From NCBI GenBank assembly GCA_017654855.1, contig CM030332.1, positions 3,286,001 to 3,350,000 on the forward strand: a DNA stretch of 64,000 bases, given 5' to 3'. How positions within the stretch are numbered: the stretch's first letter is position 1; each line of letters begins with the position of its first letter. Shown here piece by piece: positions 12,085 through 18,173 of this stretch. This DNA comes from Podospora anserina. Taxonomy: Eukaryota. The notes beneath the pieces were generated by a model. The model did no database searches and was not told where the DNA came from. It saw nothing but the letters and a program-made list of their open reading frames with translations. The translations under genes and the position numbers were made by a program.

Positions 12085-12674
12085 CATTATTGTTGCCTTC
12101 TGAAAAAAGGGGGGTCGAGTTTTGGGGGTGGGGGGAGCAGAGGGTGTCCCTCGGCATCAAGTGAAACAGTCTTGGGTGAGTGAGGTTAACGAAGAAAATT
12201 GACTGGAAAATGATCACTACTGCTTGCTTGAAACACCCCCAAGAAAGAAGTGAGAGTGTAGTTTCTTGAATCAGATTTAGGGGCATCAAGCCAGTAAGTT
12301 TGTCTCAACTCAAAAAACTATACATGTCAAAAAGGGACAACTCAACGGCCAAACCTGGATTTCCATCACTAACCCCCGAGAAATACACCCCCATTTTTGA
12401 CCTTAATCATCCATTCACACCATTTCTATCTCTCTCTACCTGTAGAAAAAAAAAGTGTTGAACTTTCGCTCCTTTTCCTTTTTAACCCCCCTTTTTTTAC
12501 AATCAAAAGCCCTATCCATCTTCCCAATCCCACCCACCCAGTGTCCTTTAAACCCATTTATATTTATTCTTCATTTTTCACACATCAGAACCAGACGGCA
12601 TGTCCGGGGGTATCGTTCATTATTGAGTTTCTCATCTCTTTTTTTTTTATTACTTCATTGTCATCATCGCACTC

Positions 12675-14622
12675 TTAGTGGTGGAACAGACGAATGTTTT
12701 GCTCCACAAAGGTGATGCCCAGCTTCTCGGCCGTCTCGAACACGGGAATGTCGTTTTGGCTGCCGAGGGGAGCGGCAATGTACTTGACGCCCGATCGGGA
12801 GGCGCGGTAGACATTGTCGGTGAAGGGGAACTGTTTTCACTCTTGTTAGTAGCTGCTTTTTGAGTGTTCAGAACAGGAAAAAAACCTACGAAAGCATCGC
12901 TGGAGACAACAACATCGGTAAGCTTGCCGAGCCACTCAGTCTTCTCCTCCTCGGTGAAGGCGGCAGGGACCTCCTCGAAGAAGCCCTCAAAGGCCTCACG
13001 CTCAGGGCCGGACTTGGGGACCTGACCACTGACGAGCAGGTCAATGGCGTTGCTCTTGTCGGGGCGCTTGGTGCCCTTCTTCCACTTGATGCCCAGGACG
13101 CGGGGGTGGAAGCGGAGCCACCAGTTGTCGGCCTTGTCACCGGCAAGACGGGTGCAGTGGATTCTGGACTGCTGGCCAGCGCCGAGACCAACAACCTGGC
13201 CCCTAGCAGCGTAGCAGACAGAGTTGCTCTGAGTGTACTTGAGAGCAATGGTGGCGACAGTCAAGTCACGCTGGGCGGTCTCGGAAAGAGGCCCGGCGTT
13301 CTTGGGGGTGATGATGTTGCGGAAGGTCTCGGGCGAGATCTCGACGTCGTTGCGGCCCTGGGCGAGGGTGATGCCGTAGACGGTTCTGGTCTCGGACTTG
13401 GAGGGCTCAAACTCGGGGTCCATCTGGAGGACGAGGTACTTGCCGCCCTTCTTCTTCTTGAGGATCTCAAGAGCAGCGGGCTCGTACCCGGGGGCGATAA
13501 CACCGTCGGAAACCTCCTTGGAGATGATGCTGGCGGTGGGGACATCGACAATGTCGGAAAGAGCAATCATGTCGCCGAAGCTGCTCATGCGGTCGGCACC
13601 TCTGGCGCGGGCATAAGCCTGAGCGAGACCGGAGCTCTCAATGCCGGGGATATCGTCAACCATGTAAACCTTGCGCTCCTCGGCGGTCAAGGGCTCGCCG
13701 ATGGCAGCACCGGCGGGAGAAACGTGCTTGAAGCTGGCGGCAGCGGGCTTGCCGAGGGCCTTCTTGAGCTCCTTGACCAAAGGCCAGCTGTTGAGGGCAT
13801 CGAGAAGGTTGATGTAGCCGGGGGCACCGCCGAGAACCTTGAAGGGAAGCTCACCCTCCTTGACGTAGGCGGAAGCGGGCTTCTGGTGAGGGTTGGCGCC
13901 GTAGCGGAGGGGAAGGTACTGGAGGCCGGTAGCGTACTGCTTGCGGAAGAACTCGGAGATGGCGGCATCGTAGTCGGCGGTGTGCTCGAAGGCCTTGAGG
14001 GCATAGAGTTTCCTGGTCTCCTCCTTGACCTCACCGGCCTCGATCTCTCTGAGGAACTCGGCGTAGTCCCTGGGGTCGCTGAGGATGGTGACGCGAGAGT
14101 GGTTCTTGGCCGCGGCGCGGATCAGAGTAACACCGCCGATATCGATCTCCTCGACCGCCTCGGGAACGGTGACATTGATCTTGGCAACCGTGTCCTTGAA
14201 GGGGTACAGGTTGCAGATGACATAGTCGACCTTGTCAATGTTTTGCTCGGCGAGGTCCTTCTCGTCCGAACCGAGGTTGCGAGCCAGGATGCCGGCGTGA
14301 ACGGCGGGGTGGAGAGTCTTGACACGGCCACCGAGCATCTCAGGGGCCTTGGTGATGGCAGAGATGTCCCTGGAGAAGAAGCCACACTGTCAGCCACTTT
14401 CTCCCAAAATGACTCACCCATGAAGCCGAAGCTGGGTGACCGATCTCGAAGTAGGGAGGGTGAGGGCACTCACTCGACAGGGAAACCAGACTCCCTGATC
14501 ATCTTGGAAGTGCCGCCGGAAGCGAGGATGCGCACATTGTTCTGGACAAGGCCCTTGGCCAAGTCCAACAGTCCCGTCTTGTCATAGACAGAGACAATCG
14601 CAATTCTTTGGGAGCCGGCCAT
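12675..14622 (-). CDS. ADE17: Bifunctional AICAR transformylase/IMP cyclohydrolase (PurH/ATIC; ADE16/17), 3 exons
   Basis: [49 protein letters not shown], and C-terminal IRLFHH*. Introns 14370-14473 and 12831-12889. Confidence 0.96.
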
Positions 14623-15350
14623 GGTGACTAGAGTGTATGTTGCGCGGGGCAATCTGTGATCGTGAAAGAAACCAGGAAGGTTTGTCAAGGTCAGTCAACT
14701 CTTCTCTCTTTCTTGATCATGTATGACGTGTGTGTGTCACTCACTGTCTTCCACACCAGAGGAGCAAAGCTTACCAGTTGTGTTTCTCTCTACCAACTCT
14801 CTGGATGTTACAAAGAAGAGAAGAAAAAAAAAAAAGAGAGAGAATCAATCACACCATGCAGAGGCTCGCCTCGTCTAGAGGAGTCTAATATTTTTTTGCG
14901 ACACCTCCTGCCCGTCCCATACCCCCCTCTTCCGTCACTCCCCTATCAACGCTAATGGAGGGGTAGCTACGGGTGCAATCTGCCCCACGATTCGCCGTGA
15001 TCGGGCATGGCCCCACACTTGAAGCAACAGGAAGTGCATCCACCAGACTTATGTAATTGCCGGGCTAGTCTCGATTGGACTGTGGGCTGGTATAAAAATC
15101 TCTTGCTGTGCCATTTTCCACACGGCGAGTCTCGCATCTTCAACCTGTTTTGGTGGTGATGTCGATGATGGGTTGCCACCACAGCCCTTGGAGCTTCAAT
15201 TGATTGACTTTTGACTTCAATTGAAGCTTCCTTCCCTGTTGTTTGGGACCTGGAGCAACCCACCGCCCGACAGCCAGCCAAAACCTTGTGCCAGACCGGC
15301 GCACAGCTGCGTCGACTGCTGACAGTCCGCACCTGCTCCCATCAGCCCTT

Positions 15351-15356
15351 TATATA
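15351..15356 (+). promoter_or_regulatory. TATA box of the U6 gene
   Basis: TATATA about 29 nt upstream of the inferred U6 5' end (15380). Confidence 0.7.
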
Positions 15357-15379
15357 CCAGTGCTCTGCAGCAGGACTTC

Positions 15380-15540
15380 GCCCTTTGGGGCATTTGGTCA
15401 ATTTGTAAGTTTGGCTCAACCATCTGCTTCTCACTTTGCCAATAAAACTAACCTCTCTCCCAGGAAACGATACAGAGAAGATTAGCATGGCCCCTGCACT
15501 AAGGATGACACGCTACTCAAAGAGATGCTAAAGATTTTAT
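15380..15540 (+). ncRNA. U6: U6 spliceosomal snRNA with a spliceosomal intron (15405-15463)
   Basis: 5' hairpin GCCC-TTTG-GGGC, then ATTTGGTCAATTT | GTAAGT..ACTAAC..CCCAG | GAAACGATACAGAGAAGATTAGCATGGCCCCTGCACTAAGGATGACACGC. This contains the ACAGAGA box (15472-15478), AGC triad (15484-15486) and internal stem-loop, and ends in T-tracts. Spliced length is about 100 nt. Confidence 0.96.
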
Positions 15541-15640
15541 TTTTTATTTTTGACGTTTCTATGTCCCCGATATGTTCAGCAATCACCTCGAGATTCCTGC
15601 TCAGAGGCCAGGTAGGTGGTTGACTTGAAGGAGGTCGAGC

Positions 15641-15650
15641 GTTCGAGTCC
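15641..15650 (+). promoter_or_regulatory. Pol III B box (GTTCGAGTCC) downstream of U6
   Basis: Matches GTTCRANNC about 100 nt after the U6 terminator, as in the S. cerevisiae SNR6 layout. Confidence 0.7.
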
Positions 15651-16064
15651 AGCCTGGATCGTCTTCATCCCGCTTTTTTTTCTCAACACCACTTGCTCCC
15701 ACTCCCAGTGACCCTCCCCTTCCCCCCCCCGGCATTAGTGTGTACAGCTCTGAGCAACTTCCCCGTACTCTTTTAGCTGAAGGATAATTCTTCGTGCCAA
15801 GAACAAACCCCCCATGCCTTGCTATTACCAAACACCTCTGTTCTTTCAACATAGACTCAAGGTGCATGAAAGCCGGGCAACATATTCCCAATCACCTCCA
15901 GACAAGAATCTTGATATTTAGCATCAACAGAAAAATACAAAGCGAATACCCAAAAACTGCATCATCCAACGCCTCCCAATGCCTTTGTTGTTTTGTTTCC
16001 CATAAAATATTCAGAAAGAACCAGCACCATTTTTTTTTTCCAGCCCTTTGATCAGACATCAAGC

Positions 16065-18173
16065 TCACTCTTGATACAACCTCCCCAGCAACCCCTTCTC
16101 GCCAACCCCCCTCCTCTCCTCATCCTCCGCAATCTTCAAAATCAGCTCCCCAAACAACCCATTAGCCCACCCGAACCAGCTCCTCGTAAAGTCAAACTCG
16201 CGCCACGCGTTCACCGTTTCATGGATAACCCCGGCGCCCGAAGTCGAATTAAGCACCATCAACATCTGCTCCCCAACCACCCTCCCCCTCTCCTCATCCG
16301 AAAACCCAGCAAGGTCCTCAAACGCCGTCAGCGCCGCCACCGTAGCAGCCATCGGCCACCCCTTTCCAGGACCAAGATGAGGACCGCCCACGGCCGAAAG
16401 CGCAGGACCCTTGGCATAATACGGGTTGGCCATGCTCAGCACAAACTTGCGAGTGTTTTGGTAAATCTTGGCATAGTCATGCTTGGCTTCTTCCTCCTCG
16501 TCCTTCTCCTTCTCCGAGTTCTTCTCAATCGTACCGTTGCGCGCGCCGAGGCTCTTGTTCACAGACTTGACCATGCGTGGCGTCGTCGAGGTCTTGGTGT
16601 TGGTGTAATTCCACAAGGGGAAGGCCAGCAGAGATGGAACATTGGCATCGTCCATCAAGTTGGCACCGCCATACCCATCAACTTCGTACGCAAAAATCTC
16701 GCCAAAGTCGCGGTGCTTGACAACGGCGTCTTTGGCAATGCCGTGGCGGATAGTCTTGGCCAGCTTGCGCATCTCTGTCGTAAGATTAGCAGCCTTGGGG
16801 TTGAGTTTCTGCTCGGCGAGCCCCTCCATGATCGCAGACGCCTGCTCGAGGTAGGCAGCAAACATCATGTTACTGGGAGTCAAAAGCTGGAAGATGCAGG
16901 CGTCATCGCTAGGTCTAAAGGCAGATCGAACCATGCCGTTCTCCTTGACGGGGTTACCGAGGCCGTCATTCGTCAAGGTCTCGGAGCCACGGTTGGTGTA
17001 CCCCGTAAAAGTCCAGGCCGACGGCAAGACGTGTCCCTCCTCATCGTATGTCCCGAGACGCATGGCGGCTGAAGCATCAACAGCCGCTTCCACAGCGTTG
17101 ACCCAGGAGTACCTGGAGAAGAACTTGAGGTCGTCGGTCCGGGTATAGTAAGCGGCGCTGATCTGGAGGAACGAAGCCAAGCTGTCCAGCTCCCACTTGC
17201 AGTCAAACACCAGCTTGGGGTTGTAAGGAGGCTGCGGGTTGTTCTGGTGGAAAGCACCATTGTGCGTCGGAGGAATGCCGCTCTCGGGAGGTGGCTGGAA
17301 CGAATGGCAGTAGGGCGAAATGACAATGTATCGAGAGTGTGAGTTGATCAACCCACGCCACAGACTGGCCAGGGAATCAAACTTGTCAGACGGCTCCAGC
17401 AACGGCAGATACGAATAAATCTGACTGGCAGAGTCACGGAGCCACATGGCGTCAATATCACCCGTGATCACATAGGTGAGCTCCTCATCCGTCATCACCG
17501 TCTGCACCTCGTTAGAGCCTTCTTCTCCCGAGCCGCCTTCCACCGTCTTGTTGGCATATCCACGCCATTTGACCATGGTGTCGAGCGTGTTCGGGTAGCT
17601 GTTCTCAAACAGACGATAGAGATCCGGGTCCTTGATCACCTTCTTCATGCGCTCAAGCAGAGCTTCAAGAGCGGGCAGCCGGAAAGTCCTGCACTCGGGG
17701 GGCGGGCGCACAAATGGGAACTTGCGCTTGCCTTCAGAGTGCGGTCCCGGCTTCTGTCTCTGCAGCTGTTCGAACCCGATACAGTCAACCTTGGCTGTGG
17801 CAGCCGGTCCGGCCTCTTCAGTGGTCGCGAACTGGTTCCCAAAGTCGGCCAGCCCAACGTCGCTATCGTCACCTTCTGCCGGAGGGACCTTGGTGGTCTC
17901 GGGCTTGGTAGGCGTGGCTCCATGTTCTTCGGTGACATCGTCTTCGCGCTCAGCAGAGCCTGCCGGGTTCGTGTTTGGGTGTGCTACTTGGCCACTGTCG
18001 TGGTGGTGAGGGGTAACATGTTCGGGAACTTTTGGAGCGTGTAAATCGAGCGTCTCCTGCCTGGGCGTGGCTATCGGGGACTGGTACCCAAGCCAGAATA
18101 TGATGACGGTCAAGAGGAGAGCGATACCGATGACTCTCCCCCTCCGGTTGCCGGTGAGAAATGGGACGACCAT
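16065..18173 (-). CDS. GH125 (DUF1237) exo-alpha-1,6-mannosidase-like protein with N-terminal membrane anchor
   Basis: Single 702-aa ORF with FENSYPNTLDT, ITGDIDAMWLRDS, KWELDSL, FRPSDDAC, MDDANVPSLL and FTRSWFGWAN. TM segment VIGIALLLTVIIFWLG. Confidence 0.9.
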   Translation of the reverse strand: MVVPFLTGNRRGRVIGIALLLTVIIFWLGYQSPIATPRQETLDLHAPKVPEHVTPHHHDSGQVAHPNTNPAGSAEREDDVTEEHGATPTKPETTKVPPAEGDDSDVGLADFGNQFATTEEAGPAATAKVDCIGFEQLQRQKPGPHSEGKRKFPFVRPPPECRTFRLPALEALLERMKKVIKDPDLYRLFENSYPNTLDTMVKWRGYANKTVEGGSGEEGSNEVQTVMTDEELTYVITGDIDAMWLRDSASQIYSYLPLLEPSDKFDSLASLWRGLINSHSRYIVISPYCHSFQPPPESGIPPTHNGAFHQNNPQPPYNPKLVFDCKWELDSLASFLQISAAYYTRTDDLKFFSRYSWVNAVEAAVDASAAMRLGTYDEEGHVLPSAWTFTGYTNRGSETLTNDGLGNPVKENGMVRSAFRPSDDACIFQLLTPSNMMFAAYLEQASAIMEGLAEQKLNPKAANLTTEMRKLAKTIRHGIAKDAVVKHRDFGEIFAYEVDGYGGANLMDDANVPSLLAFPLWNYTNTKTSTTPRMVKSVNKSLGARNGTIEKNSEKEKDEEEEAKHDYAKIYQNTRKFVLSMANPYYAKGPALSAVGGPHLGPGKGWPMAATVAALTAFEDLAGFSDEERGRVVGEQMLMVLNSTSGAGVIHETVNAWREFDFTRSWFGWANGLFGELILKIAEDEERRGVGEKGLLGRLYQE

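Follow-up and report, generated by a model that had tools for sequence, protein, structure and literature searches.

The plus strand of the window, as we call the whole 64-kb stretch of DNA that was analysed, very probably holds a functional U6 snRNA gene at 15380 to ~15545, which is of the filamentous ascomycete type, putatively spliced, and equipped with an SNR6-like arrangement of TATA box and downstream B box; judging from its sequence, we give this reading a probability of roughly 85%. An Rfam search of the 64-kb window at gathering thresholds returned U6 (RF00026) as the sole RNA gene, with no U4 or U2 genes found, and matched it to 15462-15539; the score was 69 bits (E 2.4e-15; gathering threshold 44), and the alignment ran from model position 31 to 105, with positions 1-30 skipped. 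The matched segment corresponds to exon 2 (15464..15539, + strand), which comprises ACAGAGA (15472-78), the AGC triad (15484-86), the ISL-forming region and the 3' tail; both ACAGAGA and the AGC triad are intact and are aligned to the model with high posterior probability.

The skipped model positions 1-30 are accounted for by exon 1 (15380..15404, + strand), 25 nt long and made up of a 5' stem-loop and a conserved single-stranded stretch. Taken by itself in a permissive Rfam scan of 15340-15420, this exon gave a non-significant match (10 bits, E 2.6) of RF00026 model positions 1-34 to 15380-15408; the weak match begins precisely at G15380, 29 nt beyond the TATA box, and takes in the 5' stem (GCCC/GGGC, 15380-91), which is aligned with model positions 1-17. 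An earlier note had described a U6 gene with an intact core, split after nt 25, and every coordinate that it gave agrees with the sequence. Its warning that Rfam could overlook the split gene was not borne out, the gene being recovered at the gathering threshold, although with only exon 2 reported; the S. pombe U6 gene, according to one covariance-model survey, was missed there because of its intron (PMC10581693). An annotation that reported exon 2 only would misplace the true 5' end of the window gene, and with it the promoter, by 84 nt.

The exons are separated by a 59-nt intron of the spliceosomal type (15405..15463, + strand), with GTAAGT at 15405-10, ACTAAC at 15447-52 and CAG at 15461-63. 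The branch A in ACTAAC lies 12 nt from the intron 3' end, and the intron as a whole is placed 8 nt 5' of ACAGAGA, between the conserved exon-1 stretch and GAAACG. A search with the composite GTAAGT..ACTAAC..CAG intron pattern gave this one match in the 64-kb window and none in 100 dinucleotide shuffles, while relaxed settings produced 20 intron-like candidates on both strands of the window, with ~10 expected by chance; the U6 intron was the only one of the 20 to combine the full GTAAGT, ACTAAC and CAG. By its GT..AG ends, its branch site and its fungal length, as far as these can be read from the DNA, the intron is of a precise, canonical spliceosomal type.

We built the spliced RNA in silico by joining 15380-15404 to 15464-15540, which gave 102 nt. 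This sequence is 91.8-97.8% identical to all eight of the intronless environmental U6 genes among the matches listed, and the 20 nt across the exon junction are found exactly in seven of the same eight, so that taking out the 59 nt gives back, with base precision, the sequence of an ordinary fungal U6. The earlier claim of a 59-nt intron after nt 25 is borne out by these results, in its coordinates as well as in its signals. It is very improbable that the insert stays in the transcript, yielding an aberrant long U6-like RNA, or that it marks a U6 pseudogene disrupted by insertion: the ends are exact, the branch site matches the consensus at the proper distance, the interrupted sequence is restored without a base gained or lost, and independent loci share the arrangement. 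An insert left in place 8 nt from ACAGAGA would, moreover, interrupt the part of U6 that base-pairs with the 5' splice site.

The environmental relatives used in this comparison were obtained by querying metagenome contigs with the 16-mer at 15390-15405, which is unchanged by splicing since the intron and exon 2 both start with G. The query returned at least 120 loci; among the matches listed, 16 of 120 were U6 genes with the exact 16-mer and the other 104 were chance matches. Two of the U6 loci, L102 and L103, have one and the same sequence, recovered in two separate samples; counted once, they bring the distinct environmental U6 genes among the matches listed to 15, an arbitrary sample that consists solely of genes bearing the exon-1 16-mer. 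As a control for chance matches, the exon-1 16-mer was also looked up in prokaryote genomes and in viral contigs; it hit 122 and 59 loci, respectively, and none of these 181 loci was U6.

We also scored these relatives with Rfam. Among the matches listed, intronless full-length U6 genes (L016, L030, L040, L047, L059, L088 and L102/L103) reached 82.3-92.2 bits, and two genes cut by contig ends reached 75.3 and 77.6 bits, the latter being L089; the seven full-length genes and L089 are the eight intronless genes with which the spliced RNA was compared. The intron-bearing genes L038, L081 and L100 scored 71.9, 71.1 and 49.7 bits, a group into which the 69 bits of the window gene fit; L073 and L106, both cut by contig ends, were below the Rfam threshold.

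Introns were present in 5 of the 15 distinct environmental U6 genes among the matches listed, and in three of the 15 they occupy exactly the site used in the window (L073, 49 nt; L081, 52 nt; L100, 49 nt). All three begin with GTAAGT and finish with CAG, and the branch A of their ACTAAC is 11-12 nt away from the intron 3' end. On alignment, their bodies show little similarity to the intron of the window, and a shared site with shared splice signals in otherwise dissimilar introns fits selection on the splice signals. The other two cases differ in position, with a 60-nt intron 1 nt 5' of ACAGAGA in L038 and a 55-nt intron inside ACAGAGA, after ACAG, in L106. L100 carries a second intron further 3', after the 5' strand of the ISL (50 nt, GTGAGT..TAG; U6 gene at L100:181-284, - strand of the locus), and, in total, four distinct insertion sites were seen in the 15 environmental U6 genes among the matches listed. 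None of the seven U6 introns, that of the window and those among the matches listed, has a T run longer than 4, and such uniformly short runs are compatible with Pol III read-through.

The recurrence of the exact site in 4 of 16 U6 genes, window included, each time with best-consensus signals among the matches listed, raises the question of whether the intron is kept for a putative role of its own, either throttling U6 supply according to spliceosome capacity, in line with the autoregulatory loop suggested in the earlier note, or setting the spacing from A to B block. Splicing has been suggested to regulate U6 levels where paralogues differ (PMC5855946). We nevertheless consider such a role unlikely, as the stretch from the exon-1 motif to the core is uninterrupted in 10 of the 15 distinct relatives among the matches listed, so that any role of the intron would be dispensable. 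Furthermore, no promoter-like element was found inside the intron: the longest T run is 3, with no run of 4 or more, and the TTCGA core is absent from the 59 nt, unlike in S. pombe, where the B block is reported to lie within the U6 intron (PMC5855946). A B box in the S. pombe style was, for the same lack of a TTCGA core in the intron, rejected as a candidate. A more far-reaching version, on which we would place slightly less weight still, holds that the intron is old and orthologous across a filamentous-ascomycete clade, that its signals would be of best consensus since a Pol III transcript lacks Pol II-coupled recruitment of the spliceosome, and that it would act as a throttle tying U6 output to splicing capacity.

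It is also conceivable, if improbable, that the window gene is a silent or minor paralogue, with the functional RNA coming from at least one intronless U6 gene at another genomic location. Fungi can have several U6 genes, two being described for T. reesei (PMC10170752), and the environmental locus L030 has two U6 copies within 430 nt. In addition, the nearest relative of the window gene by exon sequence among the matches listed, L089, is intronless while being identical at 88 of 90 positions, and expression and splicing of intron-bearing U6 genes are described as still needing experimental validation (PMC5855946). Against this stand the exons of the window gene, which are intact at every conserved position, as opposed to those of the degenerate L093 (67 bits, with substitutions in the core), together with perfect splice signals and the presence of a TATA box, a terminator and a B-box-like element. 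The intron site, moreover, has been kept in three other loci among the matches listed while the intron bodies diverged, and we accordingly favour a functional, putatively spliced gene.

The elements surrounding the exons are those of a gene transcribed by Pol III. A TATA box (TATATA, 15351..15356, + strand) lies at -29 from G15380, the predicted start, exactly where the earlier note had placed it. Of 15 loci, the window and others among the matches listed, 10 have a TATA box between -25 and -34, counted from the 5' stem, and four have one at -42 to -58, while the degenerate L093 has none; this count leaves out L067, whose contig starts at the motif, and the duplicate L103. At the other end, a Pol III-type terminator (15535..15551, + strand) is formed by T4 (15535-38), A, T6 (15540-45), A and T5 (15547-51), and the relatives among the matches listed have runs of 6 to 9 T in the same place.

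An intragenic A box, on the other hand, could not be substantiated. Scoring was performed with a 9-position A-box consensus, of which six positions were matched at each of three overlapping sites, 15378, 15386 and 15395; 1.8% of all window positions do equally well, and the A box that had been proposed at 15395-15405 (TGGTCAATTTG) is thus no better than chance. The accompanying remark that the insertion preserves the last G of this A box says no more than that the intron and exon 2 share their first base. The yeast A block is reported to overlap the U6 5' stem-loop (PMC9670810), and this yeast-type position falls 5' of the 15395-15405 site.

Downstream of the gene, we located a B-box-like element, a candidate TFIIIC site, at 15640..15650 on the + strand (CGTTCGAGTCC), 89 nt beyond the last T run. 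The B-box consensus is GGTTCGANNCC, from which 15640-50 departs by 1 mismatch, and the sequence GTTCGAGTCC is present at 15641-50, in agreement with the B box put forward in the earlier note at 15641; a downstream B box in the manner of SNR6 is plausible on this match. The bare 10-mer is not enriched across the window, with 2 matches against 2.94 expected, the other match lying at 17768 inside the GH125 ORF, and any meaning of the element consequently comes from its position only. We searched the window and the relatives for a TTCGA core with at most 2 mismatches to GGTTCGANNCC, on the same strand and no more than 250 nt after the first run of at least 5 T. Such an element was found in 4 of 11 loci among the matches listed, namely the window (1 mismatch) and L030, L038 and L059 (2 each), while the remaining seven loci had no recognisable downstream B box in the same search; the count leaves out L016, L073, L089 and L106 (no terminator in the available DNA), L093 (33 nt downstream) and L103 (duplicate). 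Four hits compare with 0.33 expected (Poisson P 4e-4) at a rate taken from 285 non-U6 loci, mainly of prokaryotic or viral DNA. The test had been prompted by the window's own match, and with the window left out there are 3 hits against 0.30 expected (P ~0.004). A tRNA remnant was tried as an explanation of the B-box-like element and rejected, ARAGORN giving 0 genes and a permissive Rfam scan of 15545-15800 giving 0 matches. A run of eight T on the + strand (15674-15681) lies 24 nt after the B-box-like element and ~120 nt beyond the U6 terminator.

From these features, the following course of expression can be proposed. Pol III would start near G15380, its position set by the TATA box at -29, probably with the assistance of TFIIIC bound to the B-box-like element at 15640-50, as at S. 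cerevisiae SNR6. The polymerase would pass through the 59-nt intron, with its T runs of 3 or fewer, and halt in the T4/T6/T5 tract at 15535-51, yielding a precursor of ~160-170 nt. The major spliceosome would then act at GTAAGT, ACTAAC and CAG and join 15404 to 15464, leaving a mature U6 of ~100-107 nt with the sequence of an ordinary intronless fungal U6. As to its origin, the intron may have been reverse-spliced into a U6 RNA that was then reverse-transcribed, a route suggested in the literature.

We compared this organisation with that of known U6 genes. Like S. cerevisiae SNR6, the window gene has a TATA box near -30, a T-run terminator and a same-strand B-box-like element ~90 nt past the terminator, the B block of SNR6 itself lying ~120 bp past its terminator. 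Unlike the window gene, SNR6 is intronless, and the candidate A-block sites in the window match the consensus no better than chance. The SNR6 promoter is described as consisting of a TATA box, an intragenic A block and a B block downstream of the terminator, and the same account says that recognisable TATA, A and B elements may be present or missing in fungal U6 promoters (PMC5855946). In S. pombe, the sole U6 gene has a spliceosomal intron (Tani & Ohshima 1989), reported to be spliced by the spliceosome (PMC5855946). The S. pombe intron, as described, sits beside the AGC triad with the B block inside it, whereas that of the window lies 8 nt 5' of ACAGAGA, with the B-box-like element downstream of the gene.

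In 2016, a bioinformatic survey by Canzler, Stadler & Hertel reported introns in the U6 genes of many fungi. These introns are described as unrelated in evolutionary terms, as clustering around the catalytic core and 5' of ACAGA, and as having canonical signals in otherwise unconserved sequence, with a maximum of four in one gene (PMC5855946); another source likewise describes multiple introns as frequent in fungal U6 genes (PMC7827515). The window gene resembles the intron-bearing fungal U6 genes so described in being a Pol III-type gene with a short canonical intron, an unconserved intron body and an insertion in the hotspot zone upstream of ACAGA. Within the filamentous ascomycetes, a U6 intron is, by the published description of a T. 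reesei locus, already known and exploited. The window gene is one more well-formed case of something that has been known since 1989 and was surveyed in fungi in 2016. It holds little conceptual novelty, since fungal U6 genes with introns, insertions in the zone 5' of ACAGA and the notion of regulation by splicing have all been published already.

Practical consequences follow for the use of this U6 promoter to express guide RNAs, for which the correct start at 15380 would be needed and the intron and the downstream B-box-like element matter. A Myceliophthora U6 promoter is reported to drive guide RNA expression with ~500 bp of upstream sequence alone (PMC5209885), so that the downstream element may be dispensable. 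A culturable species with this clean single-intron U6 gene would, in addition, be a handy test case, given that the expression and splicing of fungal U6 introns are described as still awaiting validation (PMC5855946).

Several of the loci recovered with the 16-mer have features of their own. The 1.8-kb contig of L030 bears convergent U6 copies at 430-529 (+, 91.4 bits) and 758-851 (-, 68.1 bits), ~230 nt apart, the 5' part of the second copy being different from that of the first. At L093:228-324 (- strand), the degenerate U6-like copy of 67 bits has substitutions in the conserved core and no TATA box, and directly after it comes a long, probably intron-containing tRNA gene (L093:65-219, - strand, Rfam tRNA 45.6 bits); L093 is possibly a U6 pseudogene beside a tRNA gene. 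Among the viral contigs, a contig of a giant-virus MAG (L254) contains four same-strand copies of the 16-mer in a span of 160 nt (451-466, 502-517, 535-550 and 595-610), a small array of repeats that has nothing to do with U6. A single bacterial MAG chromosome among the genome contigs has three copies at ~3-kb spacing (L150-L152) that are not U6, which suggests a repeated element.

Finally, the U6 gene of the window is flanked by two ORFs of the minus strand and sits in the 1.7 kb that separates them, the two being an AICARFT/IMPCHase ORF at 12650-14338 and a GH125 alpha-mannosidase ORF at 16065-18173. The AICARFT/IMPCHase ORF begins within the MGS-like domain, of which it matches only profile positions 47-94, and another 5' exon of this gene is probable between 14338 and ~14700. 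With such a 5' exon, the AICARFT/IMPCHase promoter would be divergent from the U6 gene.
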